A DNA stretch of 64,000 nt from Escherichia phage LH2. Positions 2,427-60,683 of this stretch are shown here, piece after piece. The notes beneath the pieces are model-generated. The model was not told the DNA's origin, searched no databases, and was given only the letters and a program-made list of their open reading frames with translations. Each line of letters opens with the position of its first letter. Within the stretch, counting starts at the first letter, position 1. Both the position numbers and the translations under genes were made by a program. Location of the stretch: the sequence record OQ378934.1. One strand, 5' to 3'.

Positions 2427-2933
2427 ATGATGGATTTACAGCTTATTACTACTGAAATGGTCGTTGAAGCATACGGTGATACTACAGATGGGATTTCTGT
2501 ATTTAAAGGAAATCGTCGAGTTGGATATATCACCGATCTTAAGAAAGATTTAGCTAAGCAAGTCAAGCGGAAAACGACCATTAAAGAATATCGAAATCGT
2601 CGTCTTGAGCAAGCCCGTGATATGCTTCCTGATGCAGTTGAGGAGATGAAAGTCTTTTTAGAAAATCAGCTTGCGAAATATGATTGTGATGTGTTCATTA
2701 ATCAGACTCAACCTAATGTTCATATCAATAATTGTAAATGCTACATCATCGTTAATCCTTTGACGGGAAAACATCGTCTTGGAATTAGTAATCCAAATCG
2801 TAGCGCATCGGATATGGCAGAAGATGTTGCGGCATGCTTTAAAATTTCTAAATCTCCGGCGGAACATCATATTTTAATTAACGGTCTTTCTCAAGACGAT
2901 ATTATAGAGGTTATTAAAACTTTATGCATGTAA
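2427..2933 (+). CDS. alc: Alc, inhibitor of host transcription (168 aa ORF)
   Basis: Size and position after rnlA as in T4; SD gagga 6 nt upstream; early promoter upstream. Confidence 0.75.
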   Translation: MMDLQLITTEMVVEAYGDTTDGISVFKGNRRVGYITDLKKDLAKQVKRKTTIKEYRNRRLEQARDMLPDAVEEMKVFLENQLAKYDCDVFINQTQPNVHINNCKCYIIVNPLTGKHRLGISNPNRSASDMAEDVAACFKISKSPAEHHILINGLSQDDIIEVIKTLCM

Positions 2934-3277
2934 GTAATTTTACAGCTGGATTGCTATTACTTGTAATAGCATTTGGCGGAACATCTATTATTTTAAAAAA
3001 TAAGGTAGAAAGATTAGAAACATCAGTTACTGAAATTACAAAAACAGCCAATGAAAACGCCTTAGCATTAAATAATTTGCGAATTCAGTATAATTATATT
3101 GATGCGATGAATAATAAAAATCGTGAGGCAATTGCTGCTATTGAGCGTGAAAATGAAAAACTGCGCAAAGATGCAAAGAAGGCGGACGTGGTGGCTCATA
3201 AGCCAGGATTGGTTGAAAAACAAATCAACAAATCCTTCAACAAGTTCGCAGAAGACATCCAGGACCTTTCTAAATGA
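2924..3277 (+). CDS. pseT.3: Small membrane-anchored coiled-coil protein (pseT.3-like), 117 aa
   Basis: N-terminal hydrophobic helix FTAGLLLLVIAFGGTSIIL then charged helical region; start overlaps alc stop. Confidence 0.5.
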   Translation: MHVSNFTAGLLLLVIAFGGTSIILKNKVERLETSVTEITKTANENALALNNLRIQYNYIDAMNNKNREAIAAIERENEKLRKDAKKADVVAHKPGLVEKQINKSFNKFAEDIQDLSK

Positions 3278-3573
3278 TTAAACTATCAGCAGTAATATTA
3301 TCTATTGGTCTTCTAGTTGGTTGTTCGACAAAGCCTCTAGAAGTAAAGAAAGAAACAGTTCATCCTAATTGGCCAGTACAAATAAAGTCATACGATGAAG
3401 CTAAACTATCTTGGCAGGTTAAAGTTATTGATGGTAAAGCTTGGGTCGGTATGCCATTCGAAGATTCTCAGGAATTTCGTATTTGGCTTAATGATGTAAA
3501 ACGATATGTACATGACCAGAAAACTATGATATGTTATTATCGTCAAGAGTTAAAAGAGGATAAATGTAAATGA
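3274..3573 (+). CDS. pseT.2: Predicted lipoprotein (pseT.2-like), 99 aa
   Basis: Signal peptide with lipobox MIKLSAVILSIGLLVGC; ATGA overlap with upstream gene. Confidence 0.5.
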   Translation: MIKLSAVILSIGLLVGCSTKPLEVKKETVHPNWPVQIKSYDEAKLSWQVKVIDGKAWVGMPFEDSQEFRIWLNDVKRYVHDQKTMICYYRQELKEDKCK

Positions 3574-5433: not shown

Positions 5434-5961
5434 ATGAGCGAATGGTTTGAAGAAGATAAGGTTTATCGCTTTAAAACTGGGTATAAAGATATTTTTAATG
5501 AAACTTGCGGGGCTAATAAACGAATTGCCCAGTTTATTGGGGAAAATTCATTTAAAGTAAAAATTGACCCTGCAAAGAATGTTATTAGCATTAAACGCGA
5601 AATTGATGACTGCTGGTATAAAGCTGTTGATGTAATGGGCGAATCTTATAAAGTTAGCCCGTTATTTTCAATTGCTTATATGTCAGAATATTCTTTTTTC
5701 GAAGAAGTTCAAAAAGATGATTCTGTCAGTAAATTTGAAATTAAAACTGATAAAGAAATTAAGTGGAAAGTAGTAGGTATTACTGGTTGTATGTTTTATA
5801 TCTATGCTCAAACTGATACGAAGGAAGAAGCTAAAAAGAAAGCTCTAGAATATCTTGAAGAGTATGAAGAAGGCCCGGTAATGATTACTCAAGATGCTGA
5901 ATTAGTTTCTGTCAAATTAGTTAAAAACGTTGAAAGTAAGGAGCTGGGATCAACATGCTAA
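5434..5961 (+). CDS. Hypothetical protein, 175 aa
   Basis: ORF with SD gagg upstream, preceded by early promoter. Confidence 0.5.
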   Translation: MSEWFEEDKVYRFKTGYKDIFNETCGANKRIAQFIGENSFKVKIDPAKNVISIKREIDDCWYKAVDVMGESYKVSPLFSIAYMSEYSFFEEVQKDDSVSKFEIKTDKEIKWKVVGITGCMFYIYAQTDTKEEAKKKALEYLEEYEEGPVMITQDAELVSVKLVKNVESKELGSTC

Positions 5962-6191: not shown

Positions 6192-6526
6192 TGAATTTAA
6201 CTGATATAATTGATAATTGTCTTGAAAATGATACTGGTGATCATAGAGCGCTTGACTCTGAAACAGCAAAGTTCATTAGAATAACTTTAATGAATGACAC
6301 TCTAGTGAATAGTATTCATCCTTCTGTGTATGATGCTATTATTGTGACGAAGTATCCAGTTGAGCTTCACAAAAAGATGACTGGCGCAGTTTTTATTGAT
6401 AAGAAAAACCGCTTTAAAGATGGGCAGAATATAATTAGTTCTGTTATTAAAAGTATAACTAAACTTCGTCACGAAATTTATCGTGTTGAAACTGCTAAAT
6501 CTGCTTATCTGGTGATTATGAAATGA
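6188..6526 (+). CDS. Hypothetical protein, 112 aa
   Basis: Coupled ORF (ATGA overlaps on both sides). Confidence 0.4.
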   Translation: MMNLTDIIDNCLENDTGDHRALDSETAKFIRITLMNDTLVNSIHPSVYDAIIVTKYPVELHKKMTGAVFIDKKNRFKDGQNIISSVIKSITKLRHEIYRVETAKSAYLVIMK

Positions 6527-7104
6527 AAGCGAGTACAGTACTTCAAATTGCATATTTAGTATCGCAGGAATCAAAATGTTGCTCCTGGAAGGTAGGAGCA
6601 GTAATTGAAAAGAATGGACGTATTATTTCTACTGGGTATAATGGTTCCCCCGCAGGGGGTGTGAACTGTTGTGATTATGCTGCTGAGCAAGGTTGGTTGT
6701 TGAATAAGCCTAAACATACTATCATTCAAGGTCATAAGCCTGAATGCGTATCATTTGGTTTAACTGATCGTTTTGTCTTGGCGAAAGAACATCGTAGTGC
6801 TCACTCGGAATGGTCATCTAAAAATGAAATTCATGCTGAACTAAATGCAATTTTGTTTGCTGCACGAAATGGTTCTTCTATTGAAGGTGCTACTATGTAT
6901 GTAACACTTTCTCCTTGTCCGGATTGCGCAAAAGCGATAGCTCAATCTGGTATTAAAAAGCTAGTTTATTGTGAAACATATGATAAAAATAAACCTGGCT
7001 GGGATGATATTCTGCGAAATGCAGGTATTGAAGTGTTTAATGTTCCTAAGAAAAACTTGAATAAGTTAAACTGGGAAAATATCAACGAATTCTGTGGTGA
7101 ATAA
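6523..7104 (+). CDS. cd: dCMP deaminase, 193 aa
   Basis: Zinc-binding motifs HAELNAI and PCPDCAKA; length as T4 Cd. Confidence 0.9.
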   Translation: MKASTVLQIAYLVSQESKCCSWKVGAVIEKNGRIISTGYNGSPAGGVNCCDYAAEQGWLLNKPKHTIIQGHKPECVSFGLTDRFVLAKEHRSAHSEWSSKNEIHAELNAILFAARNGSSIEGATMYVTLSPCPDCAKAIAQSGIKKLVYCETYDKNKPGWDDILRNAGIEVFNVPKKNLNKLNWENINEFCGE

Positions 7105-25200: not shown

Positions 25201-25818
25201 TTATGCCTTACTAAATTTGCCTTTAGAGTCTCTTTTCATGAGACGACCTTTAATAAATCCGTCGGGAATAATACCGTCTGGTTGTATTAATTTATTTATT
25301 GCTCCATTATTGACCCAAAAAGTTCCTGTGGTAGTCGGTTTGACTTTACATCCTTTTCTGGACTTTCTATTAAGATGAACCATCCCTTTTACAAATCCTT
25401 CTGGAACAAGTTCTCCAGGTTTAATAAAAATATTTTTAGTTCCATTAGTGTAACAAGTTGTACCTAATACCGTGCCCGGTGAGTTTTCAAATCTCTTAGC
25501 GGAAGATTCTTTCATCTTTGCTATAACCTCTGCAGTCATAACAATTCCACCAATTCCACCAGGTTTCATATTATAATAATTTTTGCTTTTTATTAGTTCA
25601 GGAGTTATAATTTCTTCTTCATACATGTACGCTTCTTCGGAAGTTTTAAACTCTTTTAGTATTGTTCTAGAGAAATTCTTTTCACCATATTTCTTTATAG
25701 CCTGCTGAATTGCCTTACCGGAACCAAGGTAGCCATCATTCAAGTCATCAGTAGAGTGTTTTCCTATATACTTTTTACCATTTATTAGATTTGTCGTTTC
25801 ATATACAAAGTGATACAT
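25201..25818 (-). CDS. segE: GIY-YIG homing endonuclease (SegE-like), 205 aa
   Basis: HFVYETTNLINGKKYIGKH...GYLGSG...EEE...NMKPGG: GIY-YIG catalytic motifs; position between uvsW and hoc region as reported for T4 segE. Confidence 0.6.
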   Translation of the reverse strand: MYHFVYETTNLINGKKYIGKHSTDDLNDGYLGSGKAIQQAIKKYGEKNFSRTILKEFKTSEEAYMYEEEIITPELIKSKNYYNMKPGGIGGIVMTAEVIAKMKESSAKRFENSPGTVLGTTCYTNGTKNIFIKPGELVPEGFVKGMVHLNRKSRKGCKVKPTTTGTFWVNNGAINKLIQPDGIIPDGFIKGRLMKRDSKGKFSKA

Positions 25819-25846: not shown

Positions 25847-25854
25847 TATTTATA
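25847..25854 (-). promoter_or_regulatory. Late promoter TATAAATA (minus strand) upstream of the segE-like gene
   Basis: Reverse complement of tatttata at 25847-25854, about 29 nt from ATG. Confidence 0.4.
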
Positions 25855-56106: not shown

Positions 56107-56400
56107 CTATTTAATGAATACTTTAGATGATGCCTGAGCCACAGTATCACCGCATGATATTGGATCAGCCATTTGAACAGCTTTCTTTCCAGTGACATAT
56201 ACCTTAGAAGTTCTAGGTTGTGTCACTCCGCCATGTGTTTCATACGGCTTTTTAATTTCTGTATGTTCTGTAATTGGATCACCTGCTACGAGAACAGCAA
56301 TTCCTCCGGTGAATACTTTACTTTGTGTGGCATTCACAACTGTTGGAGGCCATGCTTCATGGCCAGCAGTAACACACTTATCGTAACTTAATCCTGACAT
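56107..56400 (-). CDS. 5.4: gp5.4, PAAR-repeat spike-tip protein, 97 aa
   Basis: 97 aa ORF immediately upstream of gene 6; Cys/His-containing beta-rich sequence consistent with PAAR fold. Confidence 0.6.
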
Positions 56401-56978
56401 TTATAATACCCCGCTTTAACTCGCCCCTTTAAGGTACTATAATTTATATTAAGAGCTTTAGCTGCGATTTTAATACTTTTATATAAAACGCCGTTGATAA
56501 TAATAGATTTAGCATTAGGGGCTATTTTGCCATACATTGGGTTATTGGCGCCGCACATCTTCGGAGTTTTACCTCTAGGCCCTCTAGGCCCTCTTTTTCT
56601 AGACGATTTAATGCTAATTTTCAATCTAGTTTCACGCGAATGAGATTTACCGTAAAATCCATTTTTAACACCCGCTGTGCTATGTTTTGGGAAGCCACCG
56701 ATACCACCTAGTTTCATATTATAAGTTTTCTCAGATTTAACAAATTCCTCTGTGACTATTTCTGCCTCTGCGTCATACATAGCTTTTTCAGATTCAAAGA
56801 ATTTTATAATATGCTTATAAAAATTATCTATGCCATATTTTTTAATGGCATTTTTAATGGCAACGCCAGAACCCATATACCCATCATCCAAATTTGAAGT
56901 TTTATGGACACCTACATAAATTTTTCCCGTTGTTTTATTAGTTATTGAATACAAATAAAAATATTTATGGCCTCTCAT
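56388..56978 (-). CDS. GIY-YIG homing endonuclease (Seg family, possibly SegC), 196 aa
   Basis: [22 protein letters not shown]...GYMGSG...E...NMKLGGIGG: GIY-YIG motifs plus basic C-terminal DNA-binding region. Confidence 0.7.
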
Positions 56979-57501
56979 ACACGTAGCTTCTCAATTTATT
57001 AGCCCAACGACTCCAATTTCCAACTATAGTTTTTGTGTAATTTTTAACAAGAGTTTTTCTTATTGGAGCTGGAGGATTCGTCGGTTCAGTAGTATCAGAA
57101 GATGACCTAGAATTACTGCCAGAACCTCCAGATTCGCTTTGTTCTTGGTAGTCATATATTAATGTTACTTCGTAAGTGAATGTCTTCTGGAGGTTTTGAG
57201 GAGCTTTCCATAGATATAACTGAGTATTAGAATCAGTTGGAAGGTCTTCCCATGAAGCAGCGGTTTTAAATTCATTATCTAAACGATATTTCAACGCATC
57301 ATTTCCAAATCCAAATACAGATTCATACGTTCCATATAAACGATTTTCTTCTACTAAAACCCCAGGAGTTTCTTCGTAACTAGTTATATTTATAGATACT
57401 AACGTTTCACCTGTTTCTAATTGAGCGGTAAAGGTGACGTCGATAGAAGAACCTTCCATGGATTCTCCTAAATCAGCGCTCATTGGAAGTATATTAGCCA
57501 A
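56965..57501 (-). CDS. 5.1: Hypothetical protein (gp5.1-like), 178 aa
   Basis: ORF between the two GIY-YIG genes; Ser/Gly-rich linker then basic C-terminus. Confidence 0.45.
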   Translation of the reverse strand: MANILPMSADLGESMEGSSIDVTFTAQLETGETLVSINITSYEETPGVLVEENRLYGTYESVFGFGNDALKYRLDNEFKTAASWEDLPTDSNTQLYLWKAPQNLQKTFTYEVTLIYDYQEQSESGGSGSNSRSSSDTTEPTNPPAPIRKTLVKNYTKTIVGNWSRWANKLRSYVYERP

Positions 57502-58360
57502 TTGTTGAATTCTCTAATGATGTAAATTTATAATCACATTTTTTCAACGCTTTTAAAATTGCGTTATAACTTACATCCGGGAGGTCGTGTTCAATTGCTT
57601 TTTCTCTAAACCATTTGTATTTCTGTGGATGTGGTTTTCCCAAATCCTCCCAAAGTTTTTTGACTTTTTCTATACTAATCCAAGGTTCAACTGATCTTAG
57701 TTTTTTATTTCTAGCATCTAATCTCGATTTTCTTATCAAAGGATCATTCCATGATTGTTTCGTTCCTTCTATTTTTCCTGGATGATTGATTAATTTGTTT
57801 CTATATTCATCGGATTTCCATAAAGATTTAACGGTATTAGAAATACGAATTTTTAATGTTGGATCATTTTCAAAAGCAGTTTTCATCGCATTACTCATTT
57901 TCTTTCTATATTCTGGCGATGCGCATCTTTCTTTGTTTATTTTAGATATTTTCTCTGAAAATTCTTTAGTTGACGTTGATTTAGCTAATGCCTTCAATTG
58001 AGCTTTCCTATATTCAGGATTAGACCACATTCTCTTCAAATCTTCGGATGAAAAACCATCACCGCCGGATTTTATATTGGTACATAGAATATCAGATGAT
58101 TTATATTTCGAAATCCAATATCTTTCTCTTGAATTGAGGATTTCATAAGTAGAAACAAATTCAATTATTTCAAAATCTATTTTATAACCAGGTTTATTAC
58201 GTATCTTTTTAATATAATCACCGGAACCTCTATACTTATCATTTTCTAAATCAAAATATCTAGATTCATGTTTACCAATATAAACCCGTACTAATCCTTT
58301 CGGATTAGTAACGGTTGTTTTATATATGTATCTAAATTGAACAGTGTTAGATTTTTTCAT
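57494..58360 (-). CDS. Second GIY-YIG endonuclease-like protein with repeated NUMOD-like C-terminal motifs, 288 aa
   Basis: FRYIYKTTVTNPKGLVRVYIGKHES...RGSGDY...E...NIKSGGDG; C-terminal repeats ...W(S/K)xPEYR(K/N).... Confidence 0.65.
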   Translation of the reverse strand: MKKSNTVQFRYIYKTTVTNPKGLVRVYIGKHESRYFDLENDKYRGSGDYIKKIRNKPGYKIDFEIIEFVSTYEILNSRERYWISKYKSSDILCTNIKSGGDGFSSEDLKRMWSNPEYRKAQLKALAKSTSTKEFSEKISKINKERCASPEYRKKMSNAMKTAFENDPTLKIRISNTVKSLWKSDEYRNKLINHPGKIEGTKQSWNDPLIRKSRLDARNKKLRSVEPWISIEKVKKLWEDLGKPHPQKYKWFREKAIEHDLPDVSYNAILKALKKCDYKFTSLENSTIG

Positions 58361-58378
58361 AATTCACCTCTGAATTAT

Positions 58379-60109
58379 TTATAAACCTACGTCTATACGG
58401 CTACCATCAATTGTGTATTGACCAGATGAAATAGAACTCATAGATGCCATTTTTTCTGTCCAATCACCACCAACGTCCCAATCAACTGTCCCAGCAACTT
58501 TCCAAGAAAGATTTCCATTTACTGTGTTAGTTTGATTTCCTTCAACTAAAGTGGTAGCATCTCCTTTAACTGTAATGTCAGCATTACCTTCAACTACAAT
58601 AGTAACATTACCTTTTACTAGGATAGTTCCATTACCTTCAACTGTCTTGGTTTCATCGCCACGCACAAATATTGTGTTGCTTCCATCTATTTGGTGAAGA
58701 CGATTATCCATGTTGTAATAAATTTCTGATCCACCGACGTTAGTCTTTTTATCGCCGGCTACCAAAAAATTACCATCAGCATTTGTTATATCATACAAAT
58801 TATCAACAGTTTTTCTTGTTCTTCTTCCTGATGGTGATACTTCCTCATACGTTCCAGTCGGATGAACTAATCTGTATCGCTCTTGCCCAGGGGTATCATC
58901 AAATTCCTGAATATGACCGCTTTCAGTTTCCATTGTGTGAACATACGGATACTCACCTTTATATGAAGAAACAGGTTCTTTGAATAAAATTCTCGAATCA
59001 TTCGGAATAGGAGGGTCAGCCGGGTCAGAAGACTTTGCTACAGTAGCAGCCATTGCAGACAAAGACCTAGCTGGTGTTTTCACTTCAATACCGTATGATT
59101 CCAAATTGCCTGTAAGAATAATCATGGTAACACGGGATGCACGGCCTTTTGTTTGTTGATACCACAATGAATCACGACCGGCTTTATATGCTTTTTCCCA
59201 ATCTCCGGCTAACATAGCAGTTAACATTGTGTTAAATTTAGCTACACCGCCAACACCCATCTGAAATGCCATATTTTCTAATGCCATTTGACGAGAACGA
59301 TTAACTGCTTTCCAAACTGGGCCAACTTTAGAATGTGATTTAATGTCACGTTGCATATCAGCTAAATCACGTTCAAATAAAGTTACCGCTTCTTCCATTG
59401 TAATAGAACCTGGATTTCCGGTAATTTCACGACCAACTTGTTTTGATAAAACTTTATTAATTTGGGCCATATCACGAACTGGCTGCTTCATGATAAGATG
59501 ACCAATACCAATTGTCGGATATCCTTCTGTATCCCAATAAACTTTTAGTCTTAATCCTTCATCACGGCGAAGCATTTCAGCCATTGACATATTTGGATTA
59601 TCATCAGTTGGAATTTCTGATAATGGTCTATCATCAGGATTTATCGCAGTGTCTAGATTGCTATCTTGGATAATATTAGAAGACGAATCATATCCTACTT
59701 CTCCGCCTTGGTTTAATACGTTAGTATCATTTCCTAGACGTCTAGGATACTGCCCAGTTGGGTCAGAAAATCCTTCAAGTCTATTAGGTTTTTCGCGAAC
59801 TATCCCACCATACGTGCCAAGGACAATTCCGTTAGTTTTCCATTTGTCTAAAAAATGACCATAAACTCTAGTTCCTTCTACCGGACCAGTAACGGAGCCT
59901 CCAATTCCAGACATTGCTGCAGAAGTTATAGGTTGAATAACTGACATCCATGGTAATTTATCAGTTGGAATACCCATTACGTCGCCTTGTGCTCTTTGAG
60001 GTGGATGCAGACCAACTACACGAACACGAACACGACCTAATTTTAATGGGTCCATTCTATCTTCAACAACACCAACAAACCAATTAAGATTATTACTTAT
60101 CATTTCCAT
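58379..60109 (-). CDS. 5: Baseplate central spike / tail lysozyme gp5, 576 aa
   Basis: Lysozyme-like core GLRLKVYWDTEGYPTIGIGHL and C-terminal beta-helix repeats VEGN...; matches T4 gp5. Confidence 0.9.
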   Translation of the reverse strand: MEMISNNLNWFVGVVEDRMDPLKLGRVRVRVVGLHPPQRAQGDVMGIPTDKLPWMSVIQPITSAAMSGIGGSVTGPVEGTRVYGHFLDKWKTNGIVLGTYGGIVREKPNRLEGFSDPTGQYPRRLGNDTNVLNQGGEVGYDSSSNIIQDSNLDTAINPDDRPLSEIPTDDNPNMSMAEMLRRDEGLRLKVYWDTEGYPTIGIGHLIMKQPVRDMAQINKVLSKQVGREITGNPGSITMEEAVTLFERDLADMQRDIKSHSKVGPVWKAVNRSRQMALENMAFQMGVGGVAKFNTMLTAMLAGDWEKAYKAGRDSLWYQQTKGRASRVTMIILTGNLESYGIEVKTPARSLSAMAATVAKSSDPADPPIPNDSRILFKEPVSSYKGEYPYVHTMETESGHIQEFDDTPGQERYRLVHPTGTYEEVSPSGRRTRKTVDNLYDITNADGNFLVAGDKKTNVGGSEIYYNMDNRLHQIDGSNTIFVRGDETKTVEGNGTILVKGNVTIVVEGNADITVKGDATTLVEGNQTNTVNGNLSWKVAGTVDWDVGGDWTEKMASMSSISSGQYTIDGSRIDVGL

Positions 60110-60683
60110 AAGATTTCTCCATTATACGTATAAGGTCGTTCATAAATGAATTGATGTCTGATTTTGCTATTATTTTTATTTGACGAAGTTTTTCATTTTC
60201 AAGAACAGCAGCTTCATACGTATCGACCGCAGCAAGTGCTCCTTCATATTGAGGATATTTTCTAGCTTTATCACCTTTGTCATACCAAACATATGGATTA
60301 TCATCGTATGATATTAAATTATAAAATTTTTCACCGTTCTCATTCACATGATATACTATTTGGTCTCCACCTACATTTTTGTATTTTTGTATAGATGCTT
60401 GATAAGCAGCTTCTTGTGAAGTAATCCATCCATAATACGGGTCATAATTATCATTACACATCAATAAAACCCAATACAGCTGTGGATTTCCATATATAGC
60501 ATTTGCTAATTCTTCCGGGCGTGGTGAACCTTTAATATAATAAGTACGTAAGCGGTATCCCGCAAGAGCGCGTTTAAAATAGTCTTTATAGTTTCTAAAA
60601 ATATCTGTCATAGGAATAGTCGGCGCGTTTTTATTCACTGTTTTGGCCGCATATTCAATCGGATCAAAAAATGTAAAGAGCAT
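60093..60683 (-). CDS. 53: Baseplate wedge protein gp53, 196 aa
   Basis: Size and synteny; 17 nt overlap with gene 5. Confidence 0.8.
   Translation of the reverse strand: MLFTFFDPIEYAAKTVNKNAPTIPMTDIFRNYKDYFKRALAGYRLRTYYIKGSPRPEELANAIYGNPQLYWVLLMCNDNYDPYYGWITSQEAAYQASIQKYKNVGGDQIVYHVNENGEKFYNLISYDDNPYVWYDKGDKARKYPQYEGALAAVDTYEAAVLENEKLRQIKIIAKSDINSFMNDLIRIMEKSYGNDK

Follow-up and report, generated by a model that had tools for sequence, protein, structure and literature searches.

Two GIY-YIG homing endonuclease cassettes, segC and a Seg-like gene, probably inserted independently around gene 5.1 in the late baseplate operon of Escherichia phage LH2

The 64,000-nucleotide (nt) stretch of Escherichia phage LH2 DNA analysed here (sequence record OQ378934.1; hereafter the window) carries on its minus strand two open reading frames (ORFs), of 288 and 196 amino acids (aa), that enclose gene 5.1 between them in the late baseplate operon (Table 1). 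These are, with high probability, two free-standing GIY-YIG homing endonuclease cassettes that are unrelated by descent and were inserted independently around gene 5.1. By sequence comparison the 196-aa ORF is full-length SegC, an already known gene, and the 288-aa ORF appears to be a free-standing Seg-like (SegF-like) GIY-YIG homing endonuclease gene. An original prediction made from the sequence alone had placed GIY-YIG motifs in both ORFs without settling which, if either, was the annotated segC; its coordinates, strand and sizes for the two ORFs, and for the 178-aa ORF that they flank, were correct. Both ORFs are intergenic and lie outside introns and inteins, as judged from gene maps and an Rfam scan, which returned no group I intron or other RNA family in the locus at E <= 1.

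Separate insertions, proposed in the original prediction as repeated invasion of the locus, are borne out by the proteins, their junctions and their distribution. The two proteins share 28% identity over their N-terminal 128 aa (BLASTP; expectation value, E, 2e-4), and the junctions of both cassettes are base-precise and differ between the 288 gene and segC. Presence and absence were counted over approximately 553 related phage records that match the region. The 288 gene was found in 32 records, 29 of them with copies at 97.5-99.7% identity, including T6, in which the 288-aa ORF is identical, and three from the F2/ZQ3 group at 82%. The segC gene was found in 37 records, many of them resequenced T4, and both genes together in only four (SP21535, CJY920, Manna and T4_ev151). 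T6-type phages have only the 288 gene, T4-type phages only segC (the segC-only records gave 70% query coverage of the compared region), and T2 has neither, so that presence is patchy and independent for the two genes and the relatives vary at this locus in all four ways, where uniform presence of both genes would have spoken against the original prediction. Together they form a series of sites that are empty, occupied, occupied in a diverged species, or deleted with a scar. A T4-type segC at 97.7% identity was also observed in PV654520.1, 'Pseudomonas phage vB_PSGBLB0006' (host P. aeruginosa), which is a T4-like genome whose host label is unexpected, or else a record that was mislabelled or contaminated.

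Profile comparisons placed the 288-aa ORF in the GIY-YIG class. It matched PHROG 314 ('homing endonuclease') over aa 2-250 with E 1.2e-25, and a family profile of the ORF and 12 homologues matched the I-TevI catalytic domain (1LN0; E 1.7e-6, residues 5-93), an alignment in which the GIY and YIG tripeptides and the Glu and Asn all line up; the match to NCBIfam TIGR01453 (group I intron endonuclease) was sub-threshold, at 19.7 bits against a cut-off of 56. The catalytic Glu and Asn of I-TevI (E75, N90) correspond to E79 and N95 of the 288-aa protein, which fall on the ErE and yNia motifs of I-TevI in the profile alignment. Across 86 homologues Y13, Y27, G29, Y43, G45-S46-G47, E79, N95 and G99-G100 are invariant, and Y11, I12 and I28 are kept in at least 90%; in a smaller set of 13 homologues, Y11-I12-Y13 and Y27-I28-G29 are likewise invariant or nearly so. 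The family profile recovers 2861 proteins, and the 86 sampled homologues include recognised PF19835 (42/86), PF01541 (29/86), NUMOD3 (27/86) and I-TevI DNA-binding (13/86) domains. An AlphaFold model of aa 1-105 (predicted local distance difference test, pLDDT, 78; predicted template modelling score, pTM, 0.70) has a beta-beta-alpha-beta-alpha topology in which strands 9-18 and 24-33 carry the GIY and YIG tripeptides, in agreement with the alpha/beta fold of GIY-YIG domains. The YIGxH...YxGSG layout is common to the 288-aa ORF, SegC and other Segs, and several Seg proteins with this layout have been reported as active (PMC2988022, Table 1). The conserved catalytic residues and the linked recoding of the presumed target, described below, suggest that the 288-aa protein would be an active nuclease.

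The NUMOD-like repeats noted in this ORF by the original prediction were upheld in part. In an hhalign comparison the repeats of the close 288-aa family matched the NUMOD3 arrays of homologues with 94% probability (E 1.4e-7), placing SPEYRKKMSNAMK on SDEHKKKISMANKG, but the repeats are diverged and Pfam NUMOD3 was negative on the single sequence. The repeat array is presumed to form an extended DNA-binding region. Beyond it, the model places three short helices that may form a helix-turn-helix; the register is suggestive by eye, and hhalign showed no significant similarity to helix-turn-helix domains of the I-TevI/SegC type (0.4% probability). Distant paralogs of the 288-aa protein (<=30% identity) are found elsewhere in phage genomes, beside thioredoxin genes or nrdD.

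The 196-aa ORF is orthologous to SegC, with 95.4% identity to the SegC protein of T4T (HM137666) over the full 196 aa. It exceeded the Pfam cut-offs for NUMOD3 (PF07460; 32.4 bits, cut-off 20.4, aa 102-122) and SegE_GIY-YIG (PF19835; 27.0 bits, cut-off 25), fell under that of PF01541 (19.3 bits, cut-off 22.6) and slightly under that of I-TevI_DNA-bd (25.1 bits, cut-off 27), and matched PHROG 314 at 2e-54. With the motifs Y8-L9-Y10, Y21-V22-G23, E71 and N87, SegC begins with a GIY-YIG nuclease domain, continues with a single NUMOD3 module and ends in a helix-turn-helix of the I-TevI type. A review counts segC, at the 5.1/5.3 site, among the active free-standing GIY-YIG endonuclease genes and describes it as promoter-less and overlapping the upstream ORF (PMC2988022, Table 1 and text); site-specific cutting of the segC-less allele and one-way gene conversion in mixed infection are given in the same table, citing Shcherbakov et al. 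2002, and this review table is our one source for its target. The start codon of segC lies inside the 3' end of gene 5.1, in a 14-nt overlap that is consistent with coupled translation, and its 3' end overlaps gene 5.4 by 13 nt. The ATG of segC is provided by gene 5.1, and the segment absent from segC-less relatives is the shorter cassette given in Table 1.

Comparison with the T4 reference genome (NC_000866/AF158101) resolved which ORF is the annotated segC. The locus is colinear with the T4 reference at 97% DNA identity with a single exception, one C missing in that reference (locus stretch 5578-5616) from the GGGCCTAGAGGGCCTAGAGG (GGGCCTAGA) repeat that codes for GPRGPRG. This one-base loss causes a frameshift that splits the gene into 'segC' (140 aa, ...GPRGLEVKL*) and '5.3' (56 aa, MCGANNP...), and the 196-aa ORF equals the two fused. 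The repeat is intact and segC is a single ORF in the window, T4T, Manna and ESh33. It follows from the split that '5.3' is the helix-turn-helix half of SegC and part of the mobile cassette, and it is missing along with segC from T2, T6-type and ESh36-type genomes. Two further T4 records align over 555 nt instead of 564, possibly through loss of one 9-nt repeat unit, and the segC ORF of SP21535 is also 591 nt and probably has the same start as that of the window. Where gene 5.1 of the window meets the cassette (56965-56995), its final ~25 nt match the segC-less allele (T2, vB_SsoM_113; the 'empty-site' T2/T6 type), whereas ~8 clustered substitutions, a recoding linked to segC, occupy this tract in other carriers of segC (T4, Manna, ESh33). 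The N-terminus of SegC in the window is altered to MRGHKYF as a result. A segC-less type of 5.1 end beside the segC of the window indicates a recombination junction within ~25 nt of the cassette.

The 288 cassette occupies the place of 13 nt (ATCGAGGATTGAC) of T4/T2-type genomes and includes a recoded 3' end of gene 5. This end reads GGT AGC CGT ATA GAC GTA GGT TTA TAA with the cassette and GGA TCG AGG ATT GAC ATT GGC TAA in genomes without the 288 gene, so that 10 substitutions in 21 nt result in a single conservative replacement, I to V, and an additional Leu codon; elsewhere the gene differs by 1-2%. The original end of gene 5 is reused as the last three codons of the 288 ORF, ATT GGC TAA. 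This recoded tract was found only in the 29 T6-type carriers and in 3 deletion-scar records. The scar itself was seen in ESh36 (locus stretch 2480-2545), 215Ecol030PP, LF73P1 and LF73P3, which have no 288 gene and keep the recoded gene 5 end together with the last 32 nt of the 288 ORF, as a result of recombination or deletion between the two late-promoter-like TTATAAAT repeats. A candidate origin of the last ~50 nt of the 288 ORF as a degenerate duplicate of the gene 5 3' end was rejected, as 1322 of 2000 shuffles were as good beyond the shared ATTGGCTAA. Gene 5, the upstream neighbour, is the likely target gene of the 288-aa endonuclease.

In phage F2 (Tequatrovirus efftwo; locus stretch 2501-3364) the 288 gene sits at the identical junction, next to a likewise recoded gene 5 end. 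It has 82% identity to the copy in the window, and its flanking genes are only ~72-80% identical to those of the window. Between the two copies the ratio of nonsynonymous to synonymous divergence (dN/dS) is 0.092, against 0.089 for gp5, and on these sequence comparisons the 288 ORF is a maintained protein-coding gene under purifying selection. The synonymous divergence (dS) of the 288 gene from F2 is 1.0, compared with 1.9 for gp5, 1.3 for 5.1 and 1.6 for 5.4, and the gene was possibly exchanged after the lineages of the window and F2 split.

The 288 gene also has candidate control elements of its own. A match to the T4 late-promoter consensus, TATAAATA, overlaps the stop codon of gene 5, at a site where the annotation of Yersinia phage fPS-2 has a 'promoter' feature; in the window this consensus has 20 matches, compared with 9.3 expected. 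A two-tier RNA hairpin predicted at the start of the ORF (-11 kcal/mol, z -4.3, 0/200 shuffles as good) holds the Shine-Dalgarno sequence GAGG (58367-58370) in a tetraloop and the AU of the start codon in its 3' arm. The 5' arms overlap the late promoter, and transcripts begun there would consequently be without them. The majority T6-type sequence (T6/Manna), with one extra C, retains a hairpin of -8.7 kcal/mol (z -2.2). Control by late promoter and hairpin is known for I-TevI, I-TevII, I-TevIII, segB and Aeh1 mobE (PMC2988022, section 12), and by analogy to I-TevI and segB the 288 gene may be controlled in the same way. No late promoter or hairpin element of its own was found for segC, and scans for sigma-70 promoters and intrinsic terminators gave counts at chance level. 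A second exact TATAAATA (57387-57394, in the stretch 57382-57396, minus strand) lies within the coding sequence of gene 5.1. Every aligned relative keeps it, and it may serve the genes downstream as an internal late promoter.

These elements would fit together in the following way. With its ATG in the final codons of gene 5.1, SegC would probably depend for translation on coupling to that gene or on re-initiation after it. The 288 cassette would bring with it the recoded gene 5 end, the TATAAATA late promoter and the hairpin holding the Shine-Dalgarno sequence, and translation of the 288 gene would probably be confined to transcripts from its own promoter, like that of I-TevI and segB. In a mixed infection with a relative lacking the gene, each enzyme would bind a long, degenerate sequence at the empty site or close to it, which for the 288-aa enzyme would be the gene 5 3' end/5.1 region and for SegC the 5.1/5.4 junction. 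The enzyme would make a double-strand break there, and repair from the carrier genome would copy the cassette and nearby markers into the recipient, with the carrier itself protected where the insertion and the recoded flank destroy the site. A bolder version of this model, read from sequence features, has the 288-aa ORF as an active Seg homing endonuclease with its site in the last gene 5 codons, on a cassette that rewrites the needle tip (...SRIDIG to ...SRIDVGL) and carries an I-TevI-style late-promoter/hairpin switch, and forming with SegC a double gene drive that drags 5.1 and spike-tip alleles through T-even populations; these last gene 5 codons encode the end of the cell-puncturing needle, where the PAAR protein gp5.4 is docked. 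We hold this bolder version to be an evenly balanced proposition.

Several results weigh against a 288-aa endonuclease that is active and recently spread by homing. The original prediction had made its assignment of the larger ORF depend on a search with hidden Markov models (HMMs), and a single-sequence Pfam scan found no GIY-YIG (PF01541, PF19835) or NUMOD match at E <= 1, an outcome that for Pfam formally goes against that assignment; it is PHROG 314 and the profile and fold evidence that support the class. No Arg is aligned with Arg27 of I-TevI in the profile alignment of the 288-aa family, R44 being present in the protein and not conserved among homologues; Seg proteins reported as active likewise have no counterpart of Arg27. 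The AlphaFold2 model of the full-length protein is poor (pLDDT 63, pTM 0.32), Foldseek against PDB returned no match for the full-length or the N-terminal model, and the literature searched yielded no cleavage, homing or expression data for this protein. The hairpin of F2 is weak (z -0.05). Finally, the 288 gene of F2 is diverged almost as much as its flanks, and long vertical residence followed by loss would therefore explain part of the pattern without recent homing.

Some of these results would also be consistent with domestication, in which a former homing endonuclease lost its nuclease function, ended its self-spread and became a DNA-binding or regulatory protein. The missing Pfam match and the missing equivalent of Arg27 point in this direction; purifying selection as strong as that on gp5 would equally follow from a host-beneficial function, and I-TevI has a known second role in repressing its own transcription (PMC2988022, section 10). 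However, the catalytic Tyr, Glu and Asn are invariant over the 86 homologues, the motif layout is that of Seg proteins reported as active, and the recoded target tract linked to the gene is what an active cutter would select; moreover, the gene is missing from ~94% of close relatives and was cleanly deleted in some, which implies that it is dispensable, and we regard domestication as very improbable. Ancient vertical inheritance with repeated loss and ordinary homologous recombination, with no endonuclease-driven invasion, could also generate patchiness: F2 has the gene at the same site with a divergence comparable to that of its flanks, deletion of the gene is directly seen, and the flanks are mosaic with no long co-conversion tract. 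Yet the dS of the 288 gene is below that of all three neighbouring genes, suggesting transfer after the lineages split, and segC is listed as active and mobile (PMC2988022, Table 1). The T4/T2-type empty site, in addition, keeps an intact, unduplicated gp5 end, unlike the deletion scar, which implies that most phages lacking the gene either never acquired it or were freed of it through gene conversion and not by deletion. Inheritance and loss without invasion is a rather unlikely account of the whole pattern.

It is also conceivable, but in our judgement unlikely, that the nucleases chiefly benefit the phage, by excluding the markers of co-infecting competitors or by stimulating local recombination or amplification, so that the gp5-5.1-5.4 spike module is protected or helped to spread. 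In T6, SegB was recently reported to drive the segmental amplification of anti-defence loci (PMC13096335), the two nuclease genes bracket 5.1 and adjoin spike-tip genes, and purifying selection is strong. Such a benefit would nevertheless involve the same process of double-strand break and repair, and the sequence offers nothing to tell it apart from ordinary homing; nor does the locus have amplification or repeat structure, since the DNA repeats in the interval comprise chance-level matches and the Y.GSG-coding stretch common to the two nucleases, and nothing more. We retain independent insertion of two homing endonuclease cassettes as the preferred reading. Loss and ordinary recombination may account, beside homing, for part of the patchy distribution, and the activity and target of the 288-aa protein and its promoter/hairpin switch are predictions from sequence.

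The surrounding sequence identifies the source phage as a Tequatrovirus (T-even), with window DNA 96-98% identical to sequenced Tequatrovirus phages; the nearest records are Shigella phage SP21535, Salmonella phage Manna, Escherichia phage N2 and T6, and none is identical. The minus-strand order over 56.1-60.7 kb is gene 53, gene 5, the 288-aa ORF, 5.1, the 196-aa ORF, 5.4 (PAAR), gene 6 and gene 7, and Pfam matches to gp5 and PAAR confirmed the baseplate context between genes 5 and 5.4 that had been recognised in the original prediction. The 178-aa ORF between the two endonuclease genes (56965-57501, minus strand) is a maximal frame of T4 gene 5.1 with a TTG start at 57501, and relatives annotate an ATG at 57459 (164 aa). 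This gene is annotated as 5.1 in T4, T4T and vB_SsoM_113, and PHROG 1168, which it matches, is of unknown function; it is conserved and belongs to neither endonuclease cassette. In T2 record AP018813 (locus stretch 6233-6768), gene 5.1 has a 1-nt gap relative to the other phages and is annotated as two ORFs, one of them, apparently in error, as a 'DNA polymerase clamp loader subunit'. Elsewhere in the window there is a third Seg gene, a 205-aa ORF (25201-25818, minus strand) that is 97.6% identical to T4 SegE, with the late-promoter consensus TATAAATA just upstream (25847-25854, minus strand).

Table 1. Features of the gene 53-gene 5.4 interval, with positions in the window
Feature	Position	Strand	Description or evidence
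Gene 53	60093-60683	-	
Gene 5	58379-60109	-	Baseplate hub/tail lysozyme, 576 aa; Pfam Gp5_OB 2e-65, Gp5_C, Phage_lysozyme; gp5 in annotated relatives
288 cassette	57503-58403	-	901 nt, in place of 13 nt of T4/T2-type genomes
Recoded gene 5 3' end	58382-58403	-	Alignments
Late-promoter consensus TATAAATA	58376-58383	-	Overlaps gene 5 stop, 16 nt upstream of the 288 ATG
Predicted two-tier RNA hairpin	58348-58389	-	At 288 ORF start; fold and shuffles
288-aa ORF	57494-58360	-	Putative Seg-like endonuclease
GIY-YIG catalytic domain of 288-aa protein	58061-58339	-	aa 8-100 (Y11/Y13, Y27, E79, N95)
Repeats of 288-aa protein	57716-58048	-	Array of ~6 helical repeats, NUMOD3-like but diverged, aa ~105-215, motif S..hK..W..PEYR.K; hhalign; model all-helical
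C-terminus of 288-aa protein	57497-57715	-	~73 aa; AlphaFold2 helices 230-240, 247-257, 265-274, pLDDT 50-60
Second TTATAAAT copy	57526-57533	-	First copy at 58377-58384
Gene 5.1	56965-57459	-	164 aa; PHROG 1168, 6.6e-73
196-aa ORF (segC)	56388-56978	-	
segC cassette	56401-56964	-	564 nt, flanked on both sides by ATAAAT; not in segC-less relatives; 37 phage records
GGGCCTAGAGGGCCTAGAGG repeat inside segC	56572-56591	-	Codes for GPRGPRG
Gene 5.4	56107-56400	-	PAAR spike tip, 97 aa, downstream neighbour; Pfam PAAR_motif 9e-10

T-even phages typically carry a dozen or more homing endonuclease genes. The review by Edgell et al. lists 15 for T4 (PMC2988022, Table 1), and two such genes within 2 kb are unremarkable, ordinary biology for this group. 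SegC is known and its intact form was already annotated in T4T; the 288-aa gene, judging from its sequence, would be an unnamed further member of the Seg class, and no name or study of an endonuclease at the gp5/5.1 site was found in the literature searched. The earlier suggestion that this gene might not have been recognised as a nuclease holds for most GenBank records, which have 'hypothetical protein', but several have 'homing endonuclease', UniRef names it 'Homing endonuclease' and one record calls it 'putative Seg-like homing endonuclease, GIY-YIG family', so that it had not gone wholly unrecognised. The practical value of these results lies mainly in annotation: the 288-aa gene, a 'hypothetical protein' even in T6, can be annotated as a Seg-like GIY-YIG homing endonuclease, and the 'segC' and '5.3' of the T4 reference as halves of one 196-198-aa gene, the C-terminal half being the DNA-binding helix-turn-helix. 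They also add one more free-standing endonuclease/target pair (gene 5 3' end, putative) to the T-even set, and the natural series of sites could be useful for studies of the homing cycle and of marker exclusion around spike genes, changing no concept.

Among known systems, the modular layout of a nuclease followed by an extended DNA-binding region is shared between the 288-aa protein and I-TevI, the td intron endonuclease (1LN0/1MK0), although I-TevI is encoded within an intron and contains a zinc finger, features not seen for the 288-aa gene. Among T4 proteins the 288-aa protein comes nearest to its paralog SegF (31.7% identity over 167 aa, E 1e-9), followed by SegB and SegA. The 288-aa ORF and SegF have in common the motif ...PKG...Y.GKHES...NDKY.GSG..., and both genes are free-standing and overlap or abut the upstream gene. 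SegF is nonetheless a paralog rather than an ortholog, as it sits between genes 56 and soc and its presumed target is gene 56, as opposed to gene 5; the 288-aa protein also exceeds SegF by 64 aa and has a more extended array of diverged NUMOD3-like repeats, and its activity is predicted from sequence. SegB of T4 and T6 matches the 288-aa ORF with 26% identity (BLASTP E 1.6e-8) and has its locus in the tRNA gene cluster; in T4 SegB the same LWSTPEYREKF motif adjoins a canonical NUMOD3. SegB, too, is free-standing and has both a late promoter and a hairpin for regulation (PMC2988022), as predicted for the 288 gene. For the second cassette the comparison is closer: SegC of the window differs from that of T4T in its N-terminus (MRGHKYF instead of MPMQDHKYF), and it occupies the same 5.1/5.4 site as T4 SegC with the same domain order, in a gene that is intact in the window and frameshifted in the T4 reference.

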